DNA of 64,000 nt from an uncultured Actinomycetota bacterium. Lineage in GTDB: Bacteria; Actinomycetota; Actinomycetes; JAFAQI01. Under the pieces are notes generated by a model. The model was not told the origin of the DNA. It searched no databases and was given only the letters and a program-made list of their open reading frames with translations. Shown piece after piece: positions 2,089-25,396 of this stretch; positions within the stretch are counted from its first letter, which is position 1; each line of letters begins with the position of its first letter. The stretch spans positions 320,001 to 384,000 of the forward strand of contig CAVYQE010000001.1 in assembly GCA_963770565.1 (NCBI GenBank), given 5' to 3'. Both the position numbers and the translations under genes were made by a program.

Positions 2089-2166
2089 CGGTATCAGCGG
2101 AGCCTGACAAGAACCAGGTATCTCAAGAGCCCGCCGTCGGACGTTTGTCCGGCGGCGGGCTTTTTT
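2089..2166 (+). ncRNA. Putative cis-regulatory leader RNA with intrinsic terminator (copy 1)
   Basis: CGGTATC..GAGCCTG-loop-CAGGTATCT..GAGCCCGCCG-hairpin-CGGCGGGC-TTTTTT; same architecture at 13788-13867. Confidence 0.65.
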
Positions 2167-7079: not shown

Positions 7080-7726
7080 TCGTTCCCAGGCTCTGCCTGG
7101 GAACGCCCTGCACTTGAGGCTCCGCCTCAACGTCAGCAGCGGATCGAGCCGACTTCGCCGACAAACGACGAGGCAGAGCCTCGCAGGCAGTGCGTTCCCA
7201 GGCTCTGCCTGGCAGCGCAGTTTGTGAGATGGAATCGTATCGACGTTTATGCTGTTTTTGTTCGGGGCTTTGGAAAGGACGGCAGGAGATCAAGGAACCC
7301 GGTAGGGTTCCCAGACATGAGCCGGTGGTTGACGCCGTCAGGCCGATACCACCGGTCGTGAAATCGAACAATCCCTTTTGCACCCCGATAGGGGTGCCAG
7401 CGCTCTGCGACCCCTACCGGGGTCGAAGAAAAGTTTTCGCGTTCCGATGCCGGCGGTGTCGGCCTGCGGCCTCAACCGCCGGCTAATGTCTGCCATCCCT
7501 ATCGGGATGAATTTCATGCCACCTCGGAGTCGGGAATTGTGCGAGTACGTGGGCGGAACAAAAACCGACCAAAACACGAACTCGAATTCCACTTCGAAAC
7601 TCCACAGATTGCACAGCCCAGGCTCCGCCTCGTCATCACGACCCGCCACCAATCGCCACGCAACGAGCCGTGCCGCGCGGCAGAGCCGTGCCCGCAGTGC
7701 GTTCCCAGGCAGAGCCTGGGAACGAG
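7080..7726. mobile_element. REP (CGTTCCCAGGCTCTGCCTGGGAACG) cluster with an embedded ~400-bp composite non-autonomous element
   Basis: 7215-7620 recurs inverted at ~34794-35120 and internally deleted at ~48276-48505; ends ...TTGCACAGCCC. Confidence 0.7.
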
Positions 7727-7769
7727 ATGCGAACAGCCGACAACCGACAACCGACCAAGGACCAATCCG

Positions 7770-8905
7770 ATGCTCGAAATCATCAACTCCTGTCCGCTGC
7801 ACGATTCGTTTCGCGTCCAACAGGTCGCCGGGATGTTCGATGTGCCGCTGGCCGAGAAGCTCAGCGAGCGTTTTACGGTCGAGATGCCGGCGCTCGACGG
7901 TGATTGGCGGATCGGGCTGATCGTCGGCCCGTCGGGCAGCGGCAAAACGACGCTCGCCCGGCGGCTCTTCGGCGATGCGCTGGTCGAGCGGACCGAGTGG
8001 CCGGCGAATCGGGCCGTCGTCGATTGTTTCGGCGACCTGCCGATCGGAGAAATCGTCGGGTTGCTCATCGCTGTCGGATTCAGCTCGCCCCCGTCGTGGA
8101 TCAAGCCCTACGCCGTGCTCAGCGGCGGCGAACGCTTCCGCTGCGATCTGGCGCGGGCGTTGAGCGGAGGGCAGAGAGCAAAGAGCGGAGCGCCGGACAC
8201 TTCTCCGCTCTCTGCTCCCTGCTCTTCGCTCGCACCGCTTGTGGCCTTCGACGAATTCACCAGCGTCGTCGATCGCACCGTGGCGAAGTTCGGCTCGGCG
8301 GCGGTGGCGAAGGGAATTCGCAACGGGCGAATCGACTGTCGATTCGTCGCGATGACTTGTCATTACGACGTGATCGAGTGGCTCGCGCCCGATTGGGTGC
8401 TCGATATGGCCAGCCGCGAATTCCAATGGAGGTCGCTTCGGCGACCGCCAATCGAGCTGGACATCTTTCGTTGCCGGAGTCGTGCATGGGCCTTGTTTGC
8501 GAAGCATCACTATTTGAACGGCCGCTTGAACCGCTCGGCCCGCTGCTTTATGGCATTGTGGGACGGGCGCCGGCGGCGTTTTGCGCGACGTTGCCGGTCA
8601 TCGGCCGCGCGCGGCGATGGCGGATCACGCGGCTGGTGACGCTCCCGGATTTTCAGGGCATCGGCATCGGCTTGCGCCTGGCGGAGGCGGTCGGCGATCG
8701 GCATCGTGCCCAGGGAGAACGCTATAGCATCACCGCCAGCCATCCGGCCGTGATCGGCCATTGCCGAAATTCGCCGCGCTGGCGGGCGACGCAAGTGATG
8801 AAGACCGGCTCGCGGCCTACTCTCGGGATTCCGAGCTATCGCGGCTCGTGCGGTCGCGCCGTCGTGTCGTTCGAATACGTTTCAGCTTCGGAACCTCGAC
8901 CGTGA
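7770..8905 (+). CDS. ABC-type ATPase fused to GNAT acetyltransferase (phage-associated); frameshift near 8570
   Basis: Walker [14 protein letters not shown] signature, Walker B VAFDEF, TCHYD; GNAT motif [14 protein letters not shown]. Confidence 0.8.
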
Positions 8906-9354: not shown

Positions 9355-9819
9355 GTGAAATCCAGCCGCTATAAACTCGACGAAACCAAGCAGCGCGAGA
9401 TCTGCGCGATTCTCGCCGTCGGCGGCACTCGGCTGATGGCCGCCGCGTATGTCGGCTGCTGTGTGGCGACGATCCGCCGCGCGGCGCTGCGCGAAGCGGC
9501 GTTCGCCGCGCAGCTTCGCAAAGCGGAGAGCAGCGCCGAGATCACGTTCCTCAAGAGCATCCACGCCGCCGCGAGCGACGTCAAGCAGTGGCGGGCCGCG
9601 GCCTGGGCCCTCGAGCGGCTGTTCCCCGAGCGCTACGCCCGCCGCCTGCCCGACTCGATCACCGTCGAGCAAATGACCGAAATCATCAAGGCCCTGGGAG
9701 CGATCATCGTCGGCGAAGTGCCGGTCAAGCGATATCGCCAGCGCGTGCTGGCTCGCTTGGCGGACTTGCTGGCGGAGCAGCCGCCGAACAAGAAGGTAAA
9801 GGCATCCCGTGGAAAGTAA
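9355..9819 (+). CDS. HTH protein, putative terminase small subunit
   Basis: N-terminal HTH; WRAAAWALERLFPERY motif; directly precedes and overlaps TerL. Confidence 0.6.
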   Translation: MKSSRYKLDETKQREICAILAVGGTRLMAAAYVGCCVATIRRAALREAAFAAQLRKAESSAEITFLKSIHAAASDVKQWRAAAWALERLFPERYARRLPDSITVEQMTEIIKALGAIIVGEVPVKRYRQRVLARLADLLAEQPPNKKVKASRGK

Positions 9820-11426
9820 TCTGATCTTCGGCTGGCGCGGGCTCGACGCGGCGAACCGTTCGCTCCGCATCCTGCACGAGTCGATCGAGAATGAGGGGAA
9901 CGTCGATCGCCGCCCGGCCGCAATCGCCCGGCAATGGAGCTTGCTCGATTGGGGCCGCGCTTATTTGCCCGATCATTTCCGCGTCGCCCCGTCGCGGATG
10001 CACGTCTGGCTGGCCGAACAGTTCGACGAAATGAAAAACCATCGCGGCCGAAAGCTCAATGTGCTCGGCCCGCGCGGCGGGGCAAAGTCGACGATCGCTA
10101 CGCTGGCGTTCGTGCTCCGCTCGGCCCTCGAAGGCCGCGAGCCGTATATCTGGATCATCTCCGACACCAAGCATCAGGCCATCGCGCATCTGGAAAACGT
10201 CAAGGCCGAGTTGCGCGACAATCCGCTGATCGCCGCCGATTATCCCGAGGCGGCCGCGGCGGGGCGACGCTGGCGCGAGAATCTCATCGGGCTGGCGAAT
10301 GGCGTCACGATCGAAGCCTTCGGCACGGGGCAGCGGATCCGCGGCCGCCGCAGCCGCGAGCATCGGCCGACGCTCATCGTGTGCGACGATTTGCAGGACG
10401 ATCGGCATATCGAATCGCGCCTGGCCGCGCGAACATTCGGCCCGTTGGTTTCACGGAAAGTTGCTGAAGGCGGGAACGAAGCGAACGAACGTGGTGAATC
10501 TGGCCACCGCCCTGCATCGCGAGGCGCTGGCCCTGGTTCTCGACGAGACGCCCGGCTGGATTTCGCGGCGGTTCGCGGCCATCGAGCGCTGGCCCGACAA
10601 TATGCCGCTGTGGGCCGAGTGGGAGCAGATCTATGCCGACGTTGAACGACCGGATAGCCGCGAAGCCGCGCGGGCGTTCTTCGAAGCGCATCGCGCGGCG
10701 ATGGAGGCCGGCGCCGAGTTGCTCTGGCCCGAGGAAGAGGACTTGTACACGCTGATGGCGATGCGCGTCGAGGAGGGGCGGACGGCGTTCGAGCGCGAGA
10801 AGCAGAATGTGCCGATCAATCCGGAAGCGTGCGAATGGCCCGAGGAGTATTTCGGCGATGGGCTGTGGTTCGACGATTGGCCGGCCGACGTGCAGGTGAA
10901 AACGCTGGCCCTCGATCCGAGCAAGGGGCACGACGCCGGCCGCGGCGACTATTCGGCCTTCGTCATGCTGGCCGTGGATCGCCGCGGGCTGCTCTATCTC
11001 GAAGCCGATCTGGCCCGACGGCCGACGCCGCAGATCGTCAGCGACGGGGTGGAACTCTGCCGGCGATTCAAGCCCGACGTGTTCGGAATCGAGGCGAATC
11101 AGTTCCAGGAATTGCTCGCCGGCGAGTTTGCCGCGGAACTCGCGCGGCAGCGCGTCTACAACGTCGCCCCGTGGGGAATCGAAAACCGGATGAATAAGCA
11201 GACGCGAATCCGCCGCCTCGGGCCGTTCTTGTCGTGCAAGCGGTTGAAGTTCAAGTCCCACTCGCCCGCCACGCGATTATTAGTGGAGCAGTTGAAAGAA
11301 TTCCCCGTCGCCGATCACGACGATGGCCCGGACGCCGCGGAGATGGCGATTCGCCTGGCGGCCGAATGGCTGGAAGGCCGGAAACCCTCGGATGGCTTGG
11401 GAGATCGATTTCGCTTGAGCGTCTAA
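9809..11426 (+). CDS. Phage terminase large subunit; frameshift near 10430
   Basis: PRGGAKST Walker A, RPTLIVCDDLQ Walker B, nuclease motifs LALDPS, GDYSA, HDDGPDA. Confidence 0.9.
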
Positions 11427-11772: not shown

Positions 11773-13149
11773 ATGACCACCAACACCACACCTCTCTCCC
11801 GTCTCGAAAACCGTCTTCAGGAAGCCTACGAACAATTCTGCTCCACCATCGTCAACCCGCTCGATGCGCTGTTCGACGGCGATGGCGCTGCCTGGTTGCC
11901 GCTCGGCGGCGGGCTCGATGCGACCGGCCTCGGCGGCTGCGGGCCGACCACCGAAACGCAGCTTCGCGAAATCCGCCATCAATGCCGGCTGCTCGCCCTG
12001 ACCAACGAAATCGCCATCAACGGCCATGAGAATCGGGTGAGCTTCATCGTCGGCGCGGGGCACACCTATCGGGCGGCCGTGAAGAAGGGGCAGCCGGCGG
12101 CGCCCGATTGGGCCGCGGCCGTGCAGAGCGTGCTCGACGAATTCATCAAGCTCAACTCCTGGCAGCGACGGCAGCAGGAGATCGTGCTCCGCCGCGATCG
12201 CGACGGCGAAGTTTTCCTGCGCCTGTTCGCAGCCCCCGACGGCACGACCCGCGTTCGCTTCGTCGAGCCGGGGCAAGTCGCCACGCCCGCGAATCGCGCG
12301 GCCGATCCGTCGGCCCAATTGGGCATCCTCACCGATCGCGACGACGTCGAAACCGTGCTCGCCTATTGCGTCGATGGCCAGCTCGTCGACGCCGGCGAGA
12401 TTCAGCATCGCAAGGCCAATGTCGATGGCAATGTGCGCCGCGGGCTGCCGCTGTTCTTTCCCGTGCGGAAAAATCTGCGCCGGGCGGAAAAGCTGCTCCG
12501 CAATATGAGCGTCGTGGCCGAGATCCAATCGGCGATCGCCCTGATCCGCAAACATCATCGCAGCAATCGCAGCGCCGTCGAGCAATTCGCCGCCGCCGGG
12601 GCCGATGCCCGCGTGACGAATACGCTGAGCGGGCAAACGACGAACGTTCGCCGCTACGGTCCCGGCACGATTCTCGATACGCATGCCGACATCGACTACG
12701 ACTTTCCCGCCGCCGCGATCGACGCCGGCAGCTTCATCGCCGTGCTGCAGGCCGAATTGCGGGCGATTGCCAGCCGGCTGGTCATGCCCGAGTTCATGCT
12801 GACTTCCGACGCCTCGAACGCGAACTACGCCTCGACGATGGTGGCCGAAGGGCCGGCGATGCGGATGTTCGCCCGGCTGCAAGCGGAGCAAGTGGCCGAC
12901 GACGTTGAGTTGATGACCCGCGTGGTGGCGAACGCCGTGGCGGCCGGCCGACTGCCGCGCGAGGTGCTTTCCGCGATCGAGATCATCGGCATCGCCCCGA
13001 CGCTCACTGTGCGCGATCAGATGCAAGAGGCCCAGCGGTTCCAGATCGAGCACGCCAACGGCATCCTCTCGCCGCAAACCTGGAGCCAACGGCTGGGACT
13101 CGATTACGAGCAAGAGCAAGCGAATTTCGCAACGCATGCCGGCCGGTAA
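11773..13149 (+). CDS. Phage portal protein
   Basis: RRDRDGEVFLR, RFVEP, DASNANYAS motifs; 458 aa; follows TerL. Confidence 0.85.
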   Translation: MTTNTTPLSRLENRLQEAYEQFCSTIVNPLDALFDGDGAAWLPLGGGLDATGLGGCGPTTETQLREIRHQCRLLALTNEIAINGHENRVSFIVGAGHTYRAAVKKGQPAAPDWAAAVQSVLDEFIKLNSWQRRQQEIVLRRDRDGEVFLRLFAAPDGTTRVRFVEPGQVATPANRAADPSAQLGILTDRDDVETVLAYCVDGQLVDAGEIQHRKANVDGNVRRGLPLFFPVRKNLRRAEKLLRNMSVVAEIQSAIALIRKHHRSNRSAVEQFAAAGADARVTNTLSGQTTNVRRYGPGTILDTHADIDYDFPAAAIDAGSFIAVLQAELRAIASRLVMPEFMLTSDASNANYASTMVAEGPAMRMFARLQAEQVADDVELMTRVVANAVAAGRLPREVLSAIEIIGIAPTLTVRDQMQEAQRFQIEHANGILSPQTWSQRLGLDYEQEQANFATHAGR

Positions 13150-13150
13150 A

Positions 13151-13490
13151 GTCGCGGAGCGACGACCGGCGAATAGCCGGGGGTGGAGCGTAGCGGAGCC
13201 CCGAATGCAGTCGCGGAGCGACGACCGGTGAATAGCCGGGGGCGGAGCGCAGCGGAGCCCCCGGTTTCGAATATCGGGATTTTCCCGCAGCCGCGTAGCG
13301 GCGAAACATCCCGCCGCGCCCTCATGTTTCGCCGCTACGCGGCTGGCGGTTCATATTGCCCGGCGACCGGGGGTTGCGCTGCGCTTCACCCCCGGCTATT
13401 CGAAGGTCGTCGCTCCGCGACTGCAAGATGTGATCGCTCCGCGACTGCAAGATGTGATCGCTCCGCGACTGCAAGATGTGATTGTTCCGC
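13151..13490. repeat. REP-like inverted/tandem repeats (GTCGCGGAGCGACGACC..AATAGCCGGGG) plus 23-bp tandem CGCTCCGCGACTGCAAGATGTGA
   Basis: Direct and inverted copies visible. Confidence 0.75.
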
Positions 13491-13560
13491 GACGGCGTTG
13501 GCGCCGGGCCGTTTCGAGCATCAAGACCACAGATTGTTTTTGAATGGCACAAAAATGTCG

Positions 13561-13589
13561 TTGAACCGAAACGTGAACATATGTATAAT
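13561..13589 (+). promoter_or_regulatory. Strong sigma70-like promoter with overlapping palindromic operator
   Basis: TTGAAC, 17-bp spacer, TATAAT; TGAAC-ATAT-GTATA at 13574-13587. Confidence 0.75.
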
Positions 13590-13595
13590 ACACCC

Positions 13596-13778
13596 ATGCT
13601 GACGCTACGAACCACGACCGCGAATCAAACGAAAGTGAGCCAGTTGGAAACCGCCTTGGCGGAACTGCTGGCCGAATCGCTCCGCCGCGGCTTTCACGGC
13701 AAAGCGGCCATCGAGCTGGCCATCCAAGATGGCACGATCCAGCATATCCGCCGCGTGGTCGAGCGGATCGAGAAATAG
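13596..13778 (+). CDS. Leaderless 60-aa DUF2292/YezD-like small protein
   Basis: ATG begins 7 nt after the -10 box; GFHGKAAIELAIQDGTIQHIRRVVE resembles the DUF2292 pattern. Confidence 0.65.
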   Translation: MLTLRTTTANQTKVSQLETALAELLAESLRRGFHGKAAIELAIQDGTIQHIRRVVERIEK

Positions 13779-13787
13779 GAAATCCAT

Positions 13788-13867
13788 CGGTATCGCGTCG
13801 AGCCCGCTCCGGCGGGCATCTGCGTGAGCCCACGGCGGTTCTGCAAAGTGCCGCACGTGGGTTTTTT
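13788..13867 (+). ncRNA. Putative cis-regulatory leader RNA with intrinsic terminator (copy 2)
   Basis: CGGTATC..GAGCCCG-loop-CGGGCATCT..GAGCCCACG-hairpin-CGTGGG-TTTTTT. Confidence 0.65.
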
Positions 13868-13895
13868 GTTGCGCCAAACAATGGAGAAAATCAGC

Positions 13896-15159
13896 ATGAA
13901 CGAAACGCTCTTGGAATACTGCAACTCGCGGGGAGTGCCGATCCGTGTCGATCGCACGGCCGGCGTGATCCGCGGCGTGAAAATTCTCGGCCTCCGCTCG
14001 CGCAACGGCCGCGAGTATCTGCCCGAGGCGCTCGGCCGGGCCGCCGCCCTCTATGAAGGGGCCAAGGTCAATGTAAATCATCCCAAGGGGAGCCCCGCCG
14101 CCCCGCGCGATTATCAAGATCGGATCGGCACCGTGCGCGGCGTCGCCGCCCGAGCGGGCGAGGGCCTGTTCGGCGATCTCCATTTCAATCCCAAGCACGC
14201 CCTGGCCGAGCAGCTCATCTGGGACGCCGAGCATGCTCCCGAGAACGTCGGCTTCTCGCACAACGTGCAAGCCCGCACCGCGCGGCGCGACGATTTGCTC
14301 GTCGTCGAGGAGATCACCCGCGTCGAGAGCGTCGATCTGGTGGCTGATCCGGCGACGACCCGCGGGCTGTATGAAGCGGAAGGACAGGGGTCGGAGAACG
14401 TTGTGCCTCGGTCTCCCGACCATGACCAAGTTGTGTCTCGGTCTCCCGACCACGTTGTGTCTCGGTCTCCCGACCACGTTGTGTCTCGGTCTCCCGACCG
14501 TGACTATGTTGTGTCTCGGTCCAATGTTGTGTCTCGGTCTCCCGACCATGTTGTGTCTCGGTCTCCCGACCGTGACACCCGCGCGACCAATGTTGTGTCT
14601 CGGTCCAATGTTGTGTCTCGGTCTCCCGACCATGTTGTGTCTCGGTCTCCTGACCGTGACACCCGCGCGACCGAAGGTCCACTGCGCGCCGGAGACCTAC
14701 GGTCGGATTCTGTGGCACGGTCGGGAGACCGAGCCATAACCGGCGTGGCACGGTCGGGAGACCGAGCCACAACTGCGGCCGAAGGTTCGAACGAGGGGTC
14801 AGGGGTCGGGGGCCGGGGGTCGGAAGGGCAAGCGGAACTCGCCGAGTTGGCGGAGCTTCGCAGCCGGTTGCTGCGGCCTCGAAGCCGAACATGCGGCCGT
14901 GCTGTTGGAGCAATCCATTTCCGACGAGCTGCTGGCCGCCCAAGTCGCGCCGCCGCTGGTCAGCGAACTCTTTCGCCAGCAGCTTCGCGCGGCGGGCAGT
15001 CCCGAAGCGCGCCGGCAGTTGATCGTCGAACGGTTGCAAATCGCCCGCGCGGCCGCCGCCGCCCGGCCGGCGAGCAAAGACCAGTATTTGGCCGAATCGA
15101 CCGCTCCGAGCCGATTGCCGACCGATCCCAAAAGCTTTGCCGATTCGATCACGGCCTGA
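13896..15159 (+). CDS. Head maturation protease/scaffold-like protein with in-frame REP expansion; frameshift near 14870
   Basis: SRNGREY, VNVNHP, GFSHNV, SVDLVADPATTRGLYE motifs; lies between portal and capsid. Confidence 0.75.
14399..14775. repeat. Intragenic tandem array of REP half-sites (GTTGTGTCTCGGTCTCCCGACC)
   Basis: About 10 direct copies plus inverted GTGGCACGGTCGGGAGACC; translates as VVSRSPDH repeats. Confidence 0.85.
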
Positions 15160-15262
15160 TGGCGCCGCAGCGGAATTCGCAAGAATTCCGAGAGCCGACC
15201 ACAACGACCGCGTCTGAATTCTTGCGAATTCAGCTACGACCCCCAACCCAAGGAACTCCTCC

Positions 15263-15954
15263 ATGACCAAGCTCATCGACTTGCTCGATCAACTCAAGCA
15301 TCGCCGCACGTTCGGCTTTCTCGACGATTTCGATTGGTATCTCAGCCCGCACCGCTGGACCAGCGTGTTCAGTCATAGCGGCACGGTGACGATCGCCGAC
15401 GCCGCGGGCGGGATCGCGACGATCGCGGCCAGCGGCGGATCGGTCGCCGCGAACGACGAAAGCTACGTGCATACCAGCCACGCCGTGTTCGAATTCGCCG
15501 GCGACAAGCCGATCCTGTTCGAGGCGGCCGTGCAGTTCAGCGAGGCCAACGTCGATCAAGCGAATATCCTCGTCGGCCTGATGGACTCGGTAGCCGCCGG
15601 AATGCTGGCCGACGACAACGCCGGACCGAAAGCATCGTACAGCGGCATGGTCTTCTTCAAGGCCGGGGAAGCAACGTCTGGAGCTGCCAATCGTCGGTCG
15701 GCTCGGCGAAAACGACGACCGTCACCTCGACTCCTGCCGGCGGCGCCGCCTATCAAACGCTCACCGGCCAATGGCAGCCGATCAACGCGACTCAAGCCGA
15801 AGCGGCGTTCTTCATCGACGGGCTGCTCGTGGCCCGGCAACTCTTCACGTTCACCGGCGGCGTGGCGATGCAACTTTGCGTCGGCGTGAAAAACGGCAGC
15901 GCCACGCTCGAAACGTTGAACGTCGATTACTCGGCCGGCTATCAACTGCGATGA
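15263..15954 (+). CDS. Putative capsid decoration/accessory protein; frameshift near 15670
   Basis: Beta-rich protein (FGFLDDFDWY..., GVKNGSAT.ETLNVDY) immediately before the major capsid gene. Confidence 0.5.
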
Positions 15955-15968
15955 ATGGCAGTTGTCCT

Positions 15969-16318
15969 GTTGTGGCTCGGTCACTGTTGTGGCTCGGTCT
16001 CACTGTTGTGGCTCGGTCTCCCGACCGTGCCACATGCCGCGACCGCAGGTCTCCCATGCATTGCGAGCCGTGTGGTGATTCGGGAGACCTTCGGTCGGAT
16101 CCGTGGCATGGTCGGGAGACCATGCCACAACACAGTGGCTCGGTCACTGTTGTGGCTCGGTCTCACTGCTGTGTGGCTCGGTCTCCCGACCGAGCCACAT
16201 GCCGCGACCGCAGGTCTCCCTGCCTCGCGGGCCGTGTGGTGATTCAGGAGACCTTCGGTCGGATCCGTGGCATGGTCGGGAGACCATGCCACAACACGGG
16301 AGACCATGGCCACAACAC
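15969..16318. repeat. REP cluster (GTGGCTCGGTCTCCCGACC / GGTCGGGAGACCATGCCAC), duplicated ~170-bp unit
   Basis: Two near-identical hairpin units. Confidence 0.8.
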
Positions 16319-16401
16319 CGGCGGACAAAGCACAACGGACAACGGACAACGGACAACTCTCGATTTCCAATCACTCTCAACCTATTCGGAGACGCTTGAT
16401 T

Positions 16402-17580
16402 ATGACCAAAGCCGTCAACTATCGCGAACTGAAACGCCTGTACGAAACGATGGGCTCCCAGCAGGTCTGCCGCCATTTGCGCGAGTCGCTCGGCGACGGG
16501 CATCTCCGCCCCGAGGATTTCTCGCTCCGCGATCTGGCCGAAGCGACGATCCCCGACGGCCGCGAGTTCGTCCGGCTGCTCGATCCGCGCTCGAAGGCCG
16601 GCGGGATCGATCTGCTCGAAGCGGCCGACGCCGTCGATACGGCCACGTTCAGCAATATCACCGGCCAGATCGTTTTCGCGAAGATCATGGAGGGCTTCTC
16701 GTCGGAGGCCTTCGTCGCCGGCCGAATGGTCGAGACGATTCCCACCCGCTTCAGCGGCGAGAAAATCCCCGGCATCGGCCCAATGGGCGACGCGGCCGAG
16801 GCGATCGACGAAGGGCGGCCCTACCCGCACGTCGGCCTCTCCGAGGATTACATCGAAACGCCCGCCACCACCAAGCGCGGCATGATCGTCCCCGTCACCA
16901 AGGAAGCGATCTTCTTCGATCGCACGCATCTCGTGCTCCAGCGGGCCGGCGAGGTCGGCGAGTTTCTCGGCCTCAACAAGGAGAAGCGGATTCTCGATTG
17001 CCTCATCGATGCCAACAGCACCGATCATCGCTACAAGTGGCGCGGGACGAGCTACGCGACCTATCAGACGTCCGACCCTTGGATCAACATCAAGGCGACC
17101 AATCCGCTGGTGGATTGGACCGACGTCGATGCGGCCGAGCAGCTTCTGGCCGACATCACCGATCCGAATACGGGCGAGCCGGTGCTGATCATGGCCGACA
17201 CGATCCTGGTGTGCCCCGAATTGCTGCACGCCGCGCGGCGGATCGTCGATGCCACCGAGATCGAACAGGTTGACAACCAGGCCGCCGCCAAGACGGTCCG
17301 CACTCTGGCCCCCAATCCGATGGCCGGCAGCTACCGCATCCTGTCGAGCCGGCTGCTGCGGTCGCGGCTCACGGCGGCCGGCCAGGCCACGAGCAATTGG
17401 TATCTCGGCAATTTCCGCAAGGCCTTCGCCTACATGGAGAATTGGCCGATCACCGTCACCCAGGCCCCGCAAAACAGCGAAGCCGAATTCACCCAAGACA
17501 TCATGATCCGCTTCAAGGCCAGCGAGCGCGGCGCGGCGGCCACGCTCGAACCCCGCTACGTCGTCAAGAACACGGCCTGA
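16402..17580 (+). CDS. Major capsid protein (HK97-fold, Mu gpT-like)
   Basis: 392 aa; FSNITGQ, EGRPYP, KRGMIVPVTKEAIFFDRT, RFKASERGAA..EPRYVVK; synteny. Confidence 0.8.
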   Translation: MTKAVNYRELKRLYETMGSQQVCRHLRESLGDGHLRPEDFSLRDLAEATIPDGREFVRLLDPRSKAGGIDLLEAADAVDTATFSNITGQIVFAKIMEGFSSEAFVAGRMVETIPTRFSGEKIPGIGPMGDAAEAIDEGRPYPHVGLSEDYIETPATTKRGMIVPVTKEAIFFDRTHLVLQRAGEVGEFLGLNKEKRILDCLIDANSTDHRYKWRGTSYATYQTSDPWINIKATNPLVDWTDVDAAEQLLADITDPNTGEPVLIMADTILVCPELLHAARRIVDATEIEQVDNQAAAKTVRTLAPNPMAGSYRILSSRLLRSRLTAAGQATSNWYLGNFRKAFAYMENWPITVTQAPQNSEAEFTQDIMIRFKASERGAAATLEPRYVVKNTA

Positions 17581-22452: not shown

Positions 22453-25396
22453 GAACCGCCAAGGACGCCAAGGACGCCAAGAAGCTATTCGATAATCTCA
22501 TTTCAAGTCTTGGCGTCCTTGGCGTCTTGGCGGTTCAATGCGACAATCCGCATGACACAGACGCAGAAACGTGTTTTTCGACAACTCCTTCGGACCTCAG
22601 GGAATGGAGTCGACTGAAATCGACCAAAGCTGGTTTTAGGAACACTAATCGGCGCTAATTAGCGCTAATCAGCGATGATTAGTTTTCCCAATCTGTCATG
22701 CCGCCGTTCTTTCTCGCTCTCGGTTTTTCCGTGACCTCGTGTAAAAACTTGGTTGCGGCGTGACGCCCGCGCTATGCAATCTGTGGATAAAAATATCTCT
22801 GATTTCTTGGCGTCCTTGGCGTCTTGGCGGTTCAATGCGACAATCCGCATGACACAGACGCAGAAACGTGTTTTTCGACAACTCCTTCGGACCTCAGGGA
22901 ATGGAGTCGACTGAAATCGACCAAAGCTGGTTTTAGGAACACTAATCGGCGCTAATCAGCGCTAATCAGCGATGATTAGTTTTCCCAATCTGTCATGCCG
23001 CCGTTCTTTCTCGCTCTCGGTTTTTCCGTGACCTCGTGTAAAAACTTGGTTGCGGCGTGACGCCCGCGCTATGCAATCTGTGGATAAAAATATCTCTGAT
23101 TTCTTGGCGTCCTTGGCGTCTTGGCGGTTCAATGCGACAATCCGCATGACACAGACGCAGAAACGTGTTTTTCGACAACTCCTTCGGACCTCAGGGAATG
23201 GAGTCAACTGAAATCGACCAAAGCTGGTTTTAGGAACACTAATCGGCGCTAATCCGCGCTAATCAGCGATGATTAGTTTTCCCGATCTGTCATGCCGCCG
23301 TTCTTTCTCGCTCTCGGTTTTTCCGTGACCTCGTGTAAAAACTTGGTAGCGGCGTGACGGCCGCGCTATGCAATCCGTGGATAAAAATATCTCTGATTTC
23401 TTGGCGTCCTTGGCGTCTTGGCGGTTCAATGCGACAATCCGCATGACACAGACGCAGAAACGTGTGTCTCGACAACTCCTTCGGACCTCAGGGACTGGAG
23501 TCGACTGAAATCGACCAAAGCTGGTTTTAGGAACACTAATCGGCGCTAATCAGCGCTAATCAGCGAAGATTAGTGTTCCCGATCTGTCATGCCGCCGTGC
23601 TTTCTCGCTCTCGGTGTTTCCCTGACTCGTGTAAAAACTTGGTAGCGGCGTGACGGCCGCGCTATGCAATCCGTGGATAAAAAGATCTCTGATTTCTTGG
23701 CGTCCTTGGCGTCTTGGCGGTTCAATGCGACAGTCTGCATGACACAGACGCAGAAACGTGTTTTTCGACAACTCCTTCGAATCTCAGAGAAATGGAGTCG
23801 ACCGAAATCGACCAAAGCTGGTTTTAGGAACACTAATCGGCGCGTAATCAGCGCTAATCAGCGATGATTAGTGTTCCTGATCTGTCATGCCACCGTGCTT
23901 TTTCGCTCTCGGTTGTTCCGTGACCTCGTGTAAACACTTGGTTGCGGCGTGACGGCCGCGTTATGCAATCTGTGGATGAAAACATTTCTGCCCTCTCGGC
24001 GTCCTTGGCGTCTTGGCGGTTCAATGCAGGGCGATTGCATCATGTTGCATACGATGTGGAAGTTTGCGGTATCGCCGACACGGCCCAGTTCATCTTGACG
24101 TAACCGACCAATTATGCCGCGGAGGCTGAAGCTGCTGCTCGCATACTCGATCTCGCCATTTCGAATCAATACCGAATGTTGGTTGCCCAATCCCCGCCAT
24201 CATTGCCAGTGTGGTGCAATCGCCCTGCGGTTCAATGCGACAGTCTGCATGACAAAGACGCAGAAACGTGATTTTCGACAACTCCTTCGGACCTCAGGGA
24301 ATGGAGTTAACTGAAATCGACCAAAGCTGGTTTTAGGAACACTAATCGGCGCTAATTAGCGCTAATCAGCGATGATTAGTTTTCCCAATCTGTCATGCCG
24401 CCGTTCTTTCTCGCTCTCGGTTTTTCCGTGACCTCGTGTAAAAACTTGGTTGCGGCGTGACGCCCGCGCTATGCAATCTGTGGATAAAAATATCTCTGAT
24501 TTCTTGGCGTCCTTGGCGTCTTGGCGGTTCAATGCGACAATCCGCATGACACAGACGCAGAAACGTGTTTTTCGACAACTCCTTCGGACCTCAGGGAATG
24601 GAGTCAACTGAAATCGACCAAAGCTGGTTTTAGGAACACTAATCGGCGCTAATTCGCGCTAATCAGCGATGATTAGTTTTCCCAATCTGTCATGCCGCCG
24701 TTCTTTCTCGCTCTCGGTTTTTCCGTGACCTCGTGTAAAAACTTGGTTGCGGCGTGACGCCCGCGCTATGCAATCTGTGGATAAAAATATCTCTGATTTC
24801 TTGGCGTCCTTGGCGTCTTGGCGGTTCAATGCGACAATCCGCATGACACAGACGCAGAAACGTGTGTCTCGACAACTCCTTCGGACCTCAGGGACTGGAG
24901 TCAACTGAAATCGACCAAAGCTGGTTTTAGGAACACTAATCGGCGCTAATCAGCGCTAATCAGCGAAGATTAGTGTTCCCGATCTGTCATGCCGCCGTGC
25001 TTTCTCGCTCTCGGTGTTTCCCTGACTCGTGTAAAAACGTGGTAGCGGCGTGACGGCCGCGCTATGCAATCCGTGGATAAAAAGATCTCTGATTTCTTGG
25101 CGTCCTTGGCGTCTTGGCGGTTCAATGCGACAATCCGCATGACACAGATGCAGAAACGTGATTTTCGACAACTCCTTCGAACCTCAGAGAAATGGAGTCG
25201 ACTGAAATCGACCAGAGCTGGTTTTAGGAACACTAATCGGCGCTAATCAGCGCTAATCAGCGATGATTAGTGTTCCCGATCTGTCATGCCGCCGTGCTTT
25301 TTCGCTCTCGATTGTTCCGTGACTCGTGTAAACACTTGGTTGCGGCCTGACGGCTTTCTGCTTTCTTGGCGTCCTTGGCGCCTTGGCGGTTCAATC
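22453..25396. repeat. Tandem array of nine ~297-bp non-coding units (5+4) starting from a REP doublet
   Basis: Anchor CTTGGCGTCCTTGGCG at 22509, 22806, 23103, 23400, 23696, 23995, 24503, 24800, 25096, 25365. Confidence 0.95.
24027..24227. mobile_element. 201-bp MITE with 13-bp TIRs and 10-bp TSD
   Basis: CAGGGCGATTGCA..TGCAATCGCCCTG flanked by CGGTTCAATG at 24017-24026 and 24228-24237. Confidence 0.8.

Follow-up and report, generated by a model that had tools for sequence, protein, structure and literature searches.

Results

The small ORF lies within a phage-derived gene cluster

The window, by which we mean the whole stretch of 64,000 nucleotides analyzed (contig positions 320001-384000), carries a cluster of phage-derived structural genes on its + strand. 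Genes for the terminase subunits and the portal come before a small ORF, and a head-protease-like gene followed by the capsid, head closure, tail terminator, and tail tube genes come after it. The portal gene (11773..13149) is the last one ahead of promoter P2, and the ORF (13596..13778) encodes a 60-aa protein. The ORF stop ends at 13778, the motif CGGTATC of a leader RNA (leader 2) starts 10 nt past it at 13788, and the first gene that leader 2 would gate, a head-protease/scaffold-like gene with repeat insertions and a likely frameshift, occupies 13896..15266. A preliminary description of this DNA had reported the same order of 60-aa protein, RNA motif, and head genes, and our coordinates bear it out. 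At the start of the cluster, leader 1 (2090..2166, + strand) contains the same hairpin and terminator with no small ORF ahead and would gate the first block of genes, including terminase and portal. Of 150 genomes of the order, 105 have the major capsid gene (16402..17580), most of them as a single copy.

Contig C1, on which the window lies, is chimeric. Its first ∼400 kb are planctomycete-like in composition and the remainder matches the other ten contigs of the assembly; the window falls inside the ∼400-kb segment, in a bin assigned to another organism. The named homologues of the ORF belong to Pirellulales, and the lexA and recA genes on contig C1 look actinobacterial. Since the window is planctomycete and the assigned clade is wrong, a search for relatives in that clade was uninformative.

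The cluster mostly occurs once per genome, and in many genomes its neighbor is the same host gene, which is nuclease/phosphatase-like. Its mostly single-copy head-tail genes, found in 105/150 genomes of the order, and its fixed chromosomal site across a clade are likenesses to gene transfer agents (GTAs) and domesticated prophages. In GTAs, particles package and transfer host DNA; the Pirellulales cluster is described here at the level of genes. Judged by this gene content, the cluster resembles a domesticated, GTA-like system that has a regulon. We found no description of a GTA-like system in Pirellulales in our literature search, and no integrase or replication genes among 30 chosen ORFs of this assembly, which contains frameshifts. 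Some cluster genes are split across frames (7539-8905, 9809-11426, and the head-protease-like gene, at 13896-15159). More than one frame was spanned by 3/5 cluster genes versus 2/6 genes outside the cluster, and because host genes are split as well, assembly errors are likely, with decay of the cluster in this genome as an alternative. We also observed dense REP-like and tandem repeat insertions within and between cluster genes (13150-13480, 14400-14780, 15950-16330, and about 22500-25300); in relatives, such repeats often sit between the ORF stop and the hairpin. Lastly, in genomes G509, G543, and G571 (L415, L416, and L418), leader 1 lies beside the usual host gene, with portal, capsid, and small ORF undetected. 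These leader-1-only loci are either reduced clusters or missing assembly.

The ORF is a conserved gene with a leaderless layout

Promoter P2 (13561..13589, + strand) consists of a -35 element TTGAAC at 13561, a 17-nt spacer, and a -10 element TATAAT ending at 13589. The ATG is at 13596, leaving 6 nt between the -10 element and the start codon, and the predicted transcription start coincides with the ATG or is adjacent to it. These positions agree with the promoter reported earlier, for which an ATG 7 nt past the -10 and no RBS had been noted. P2 is the sole sigma70-type site in 12500-15500 (shuffled sequences gave a mean of 0.5). Lack of conservation of the ORF had been named as a ground for refutation. 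A word-indexed search returned 160 homologues; the family comprises 180 clusters at 50% identity. Over 155 homologues, differences at codon positions 1, 2, and 3 numbered 1858, 1056, and 3459, a pattern of coding selection. A promoter-like match lies upstream in 147 of 158 loci, and its -10 is within 9 nt of the ATG in 130/158. SD-like cores were found at 15/158 ORF loci versus 76/85 head genes. At the level of sequence, this confirms that the ORF is a real gene under coding selection with a conserved leaderless promoter-ATG layout, the start site being predicted. A phylum-wide search, in which up to 16 candidates were scored per genome, gave at least six real matches in 401 genomes.

The protein is predicted to dimerize and is a remote relative of DUF2292

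AlphaFold predicted an alpha-beta-beta chain with a helix at residues 8-28 and strands at 35-44 and 47-57 (pLDDT 83). When modeled as a homodimer, the protein scored 0.67 versus 0.01 for the best control; the mark used for this score was reached by 20/30 solved pairs and 1/23 single chains. The dimer runs showed at least 94% contact agreement with pLDDT of at least 79, and the two beta1 strands paired about residue 39 in an antiparallel sheet. The net charge of the protein is only about +2. A structure-fold search returned nothing clear (best Z 4.4), and a viral fold search returned no match at E 0.001. Similarly, no sequence relative was found in the PDB and no match in PHROG, nor any in annotated phages. 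When Atlas was queried with the homologue P0065, we obtained viral and planctomycete clusters without names, with DUF2292 only at 0.76, which we treat as a lead.

The earlier label "DUF2292-like" stood as to remote profile homology and the same predicted fold, but did not stand as a family assignment. The 60-aa protein had no Pfam match, the 22-bit cut-off of DUF2292 (PF10055) not being reached. The DUF2292 profile matched 3/88 homologues below that cut-off (best E 0.15), and the present assembly contains no PF10055 match at cut-off. In the reverse direction, 30/30 DUF2292 proteins scored 5-15 bits on the family profile A2, and 3/600 shuffles reached 5. Alignment of the profiles by hhalign gave 82% at E 1e-5, and 94% at E 1e-7 when the family profile was broadened by distant phage members. 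Both families have the motif G..QDG.I, and they share the predicted helix and beta-hairpin elements. By profile comparison, the 60-aa protein is a remote relative of DUF2292 and not a member.

Canonical DUF2292 genes stand as separate genes in the same genomes, and were found in 42/201 Planctomycetia genomes. Downstream of 19/30 true DUF2292 genes we found a CCGAC..GAGG hairpin with a 2x1 internal loop, unlike the leader hairpin in sequence; Rfam gave no match for it in the two loci tested. Among the Planctomycetia DUF2292 genes (L276-L305), these 19 are followed by one to three such hairpins, often before genes that by eye are prepilin-like or BON-like. The likeness to DUF2292/YezD/OscA thus extends from the helix, beta-hairpin, and G..QDG.I motif to a 2x1-loop hairpin just downstream. 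The differences are a score below the Pfam cut-off, a longer first helix, and another hairpin sequence; moreover, phage head genes follow here, with no CCGAC..GAGG hairpin and no sulfate-type neighborhood. As described in PMC2996968, oscA is linked to sbp and sulfate starvation.

The leader RNA is predicted to fold as either a two-loop hairpin or a terminator

Leader 2 can be folded as a candidate antiterminator hairpin (13789..13830, + strand) with two opposed 2x1 internal loops. The first GGUAUC pairs with the second GAGCC as an outer helix, and the first GAGCC pairs with the second-unit GGCAUC as an inner helix; the two UA/G loops are alike and opposite in orientation. The predicted intrinsic terminator 2 (13826..13867, + strand) uses the second GAGCC in its base. 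Since this one GAGCC serves both the outer helix and the terminator base, the two folds are mutually exclusive. The consensus reads GGUAUC-N4-6-GAGCC-stem-loop-GGUAUC-N4-6-GAGCCC-terminator. By script, no strong terminator-like site other than leaders 1 and 2 was found on the + strand in 1900-29700; a generic terminator scan had missed terminator 2.

Covariation supports both folds. Across 82 aligned leaders, whose rows were picked by a regex favoring the motif, the long hairpin and upper terminator stem were 90.4% paired, with double changes at 22/25 pairs. This level was reached by 0/500 shuffles, and the terminator model was likewise supported. Alignment A3 excluded 13/93 leaders with unusual lengths or a doubtful parse. 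In the outer helix, compensatory changes from C-G to U-A were present in 4/93 leaders, and its two G-C pairs are invariant and yield no covariation; the linker pair gave 28/59 versus 16.7 expected. The lowest-energy fold was predicted to be the terminator in 92/93 parsed leaders, the outer helix costing a median of 9.2 kcal/mol. An alternative fold with two small hairpins was weaker: only 3 cells showed double changes, and two of the unit-2 pairs were broken in 7 and 4 cells. Rfam gave no match for the leader RNA. Four further CM matches in the loci had E values near 1e-3. A third model match on the contig, at C1:68520, was rejected because it looks like the end of a 5S rRNA (recognized by eye) plus a terminator.

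The ORF and the leader occur together and are lost together

Among the 160 ORF loci, a leader lies within 2 kb after the ORF in 138 (80 of them training rows). The regex finds a leader in 105/160 loci and none on the reverse strand, and the distance from ORF stop to hairpin ranges from 3 to 222 nt. Co-occurrence of protein family and RNA motif, a check put forward in the preliminary description, was evident when we surveyed 150 genomes of the order, in which the protein was found in 74, the RNA in 82, and the capsid in 105. The RNA was present in 71/74 protein-positive genomes versus 3/31 capsid-positive, protein-negative ones; as the genomes are related, these counts overstate independence. 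The 31 genomes yielded 16 usable regions upstream of head genes, 15 of which lack both ORF and hairpin and one of which is cut by a contig end. Several of the regions lacking both retain the promoter.

Exceptions exist on both sides. No leader 2 was found at 22 ORF loci, and in 21/22 a crude test detected no terminator-like site either. Four such loci (L030, L032, L041, and L054) retain a leader at another position, and one protein-positive genome region lacks leader 2 (L436). Conversely, 11/82 RNA-positive genomes have no detectable protein, and some of them carry up to 7 leaders. When five of these 11 were searched again with two profiles, we obtained weak matches only (best E 0.025), one of which was a canonical DUF2292. 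In small-genome planctomycetes, distant homologues occur with a variant hairpin before a prohead-protease-like gene.

We also observed satellite promoter-leader-terminator units, up to 25 extra per genome, before scattered genes, some of them long (L254-L273; G555, G558, G539, G509, G562, and others). The genes behind satellite leaders may belong to the same regulon as cargo or accessory genes.

Phages carry the same pairing. A strict two-loop pattern was preceded directly by the protein in 24/25 viral contigs. With a 21-nt one-loop pattern, a query free of the terminator, a terminator then followed in 18/18 matches (about 15 distinct sequences) versus 2/123 control sites. Judging translations by eye, the one-loop hairpin is mostly ahead of portal-, head-protease-, or tail-like genes. 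A distant homologue lies upstream of 12/18 of these phage hairpins, nine at 10 bits or more, and the remaining 6/18 have no homologue within 2.5 kb. In phages, the adjacency of ORF and hairpin holds down to homologues of 16-30% identity.

Promoter elements suggest two possible kinds of upstream control

Leader 1 has its own conserved promoter, P1 (2046..2075, + strand; TTGAAA, 18 nt, TATAGT), without a small ORF in front of the leader. A TGGC(A/C)CAA box lies 5′ of the P2 -35 element (13545..13552, + strand), and its reverse complement lies just past the -35 of P1 (2052-2059). The core TGG[CT][CA] was found 30-80 nt upstream in 129/158 homologous promoters. The box is conserved across the order and was seen at satellite leaders as well. 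Because it is kept where the protein is lost, the box would belong to another regulator.

A putative LexA (SOS) box, TGWWC-N4-GTWYA, overlaps the P2 -10 element (13574..13587, + strand) and is the sole exact match in the 64-kb window. The consensus was drawn from the very promoters that it matches (8/8), those of lexA and recA in 4 Pirellulales genomes; the lexA of the organism that carries the cluster is absent from the present assembly. It is exact in 10/158 homologous promoters versus 8/3160 shuffles, and 30/158 match with at most one mismatch. As just 10/158 are exact, only some lineages would be under SOS control. In G043, the single genome in which this was tested, the motif was not enriched genome-wide (17 strand matches versus 15 in the control). 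In the same genome, a LexA-type box stands before an HTH-like gene ∼17 kb from the small ORF (L466, C1:6180600); this gene had no match in contig C1 of the present assembly. Another promoter-like copy of the LexA-type box is at contig C1 position 302156. From the box at P2, the trigger in this genome would probably be relief of LexA repression upon DNA damage.

Discussion

Taken together, the conservation of the ORF, the covariation of both RNA folds, their overlap, and the co-occurrence and joint loss of protein and RNA, combined with the predicted protein fold, dimer, and folding energies, suggest that the 60-aa protein is a homodimeric, RNA-binding antiterminator that opens both leaders within a feed-forward delay circuit, a reading in which we have good confidence. 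The role of antiterminator for both leaders, as proposed in the preliminary description, is likely on this combination of co-occurrence, joint loss, terminator overlap, predicted dimer, and default fold. In the proposed mechanism, both promoters would by default yield short terminated RNAs, as the predicted fold implies for leaders without the protein. The ORF's own leaderless transcript would be made upstream of terminator 2. Once LexA repression is relieved, the promoter would switch on, the protein would accumulate, and the gates would open: the protein dimer would stabilize the two-loop hairpin and keep GAGCC off the terminator base, so that RNA polymerase could pass both leaders and transcribe the genes for packaging and for head and tail.

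The same observations bear on several other explanations. It is unlikely, though the most serious of these, that the hairpin-terminator answers another ligand, such as a metabolite, a host protein, or a canonical DUF2292, and that the ORF is a co-regulated neighbor. The 11 genomes with leaders and no detected protein, several of them with more than one leader, would fit a different ligand, as would the diverse genes behind satellite leaders. Yet the ORF, hairpin, and terminator vanish jointly from loci where the promoter stays, and the adjacency persists to the phage homologues of 16-30% identity; in two of the protein-negative genomes, moreover, the cluster genes end after the portal, resembling decay or missing assembly. 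A ribosome translating the ORF could instead attenuate leader 2 in cis, its protein product being incidental, and a hairpin that begins 10 nt past the stop here would suit such coupling. We consider this the least probable explanation of all since the stop-hairpin distance varies from 3 to 222 nt, no such ORF precedes leader 1 or the satellite leaders, and the amino-acid sequence is strongly conserved.

Somewhat doubtful too, and in our estimate quite unlikely, is the bistable master switch with N-like processive antitermination and positive feedback that the preliminary description had favored. One type of element would gate two operons on either reading, the small-protein gene lies within the leader-1 unit, and no strong terminator was found between 2166 and P2. 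Nevertheless, the element overlaps the very terminator that it would control, and up to 29700 we found no terminators farther downstream for which processive action would be required. Positive feedback is poorly supported because the ORF, with a promoter of its own, precedes terminator 2 and lacks an SD; without one, it would be expected to be translated poorly from leader-1 readthrough mRNA. The antiparallel sheet of the predicted dimer and the TGGC box common to both promoters would also be compatible with beta-sheet DNA binding, either to that box or to the GGTATC-N5-GAGCC pseudo-palindrome, with a Q-like action on initiation or paused polymerase. This is improbable given that the TGGC-box promoter survives in protein-less genomes, that the variable stems covary as RNA, and that the spacing between units varies. 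A feed-forward delay that starts at a promoter probably repressed by LexA would suit the anatomy of the locus better than positive feedback.

Among known systems, the BglG/SacY/LicT family offers the closest parallel. According to PMC3105407, LicT acts as a symmetric dimer that recognizes two internal loops in a hairpin. The CAT domain and RAT hairpin of these proteins (PMC3105407, PMC12591593) resemble the present pair in combining a small symmetric dimer, predicted here, with two asymmetric internal loops, and in a leader whose antiterminator hairpin excludes an overlapping intrinsic terminator. In contrast, here a free-standing alpha-beta-beta chain of 60 aa makes up the whole protein, with no CAT/PRD domain (no Pfam match), the loop sequences differ, control is apparently exerted via the protein's own transcription, and the genes gated are phage structural genes rather than sugar operons. 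By analogy, RAT-style antitermination by an unrelated protein is likely the best fit. ANTAR dual-hairpin antitermination, which appears in Table 1 of PMC12591593, is similar in that its RNA unit is repeated and the second of the copies overlaps the terminator, but we found no ANTAR match here, and the two-hairpin fold is worse, with substitutions that break its pairs.

The analogy to lambda N/nut drawn in the preliminary description does not carry over. Lambda N is an arginine-rich peptide without a fold of its own; acting with Nus factors at boxA/boxB sites that lie far from the terminators, it modifies RNA polymerase processively. The likeness is that of a small phage protein proposed to permit readthrough of two units via an RNA site. 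Here, however, the site overlaps and competes with the terminator as RAT does, the second GAGCC being part of both, and the structure predicted for the protein is that of a folded alpha-beta-beta dimer.

Our search of the literature and Rfam found no description of the protein-RNA module; the RNA may be an anonymous candidate in the supplements of PMC10690425 or PMC5737381, and it was not matched in the three supplement files of PMC10690425 that we searched. The protein-RNA module is real and probably undescribed. A broader proposal, to which we give an even chance, is that DUF2292-like alpha-beta-beta mini-proteins constitute a widespread, unrecognized superfamily of RNA-binding antiterminators, each with its own 2x1-loop hairpin. 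In that case, the branch described here would switch on the late genes of many phages. In Pirellulales it would be the master switch of a domesticated, GTA-like particle system that is so far undescribed; satellite cargo genes would be tied in through copies of its leader, and some lineages would add SOS control. If true, this would provide a testable function for the long-unexplained DUF2292/YezD/OscA superfamily and its relatives, and a mode of phage late-gene control distinct from N, Q, and late sigma factors. A 60-aa protein and a 40-nt RNA with natural specificity variants would also make a compact, possibly orthogonal transcription switch. For the Pirellulales themselves, it would reveal the trigger of an apparently domesticated phage-particle cluster found in about 70% of the sampled genomes.
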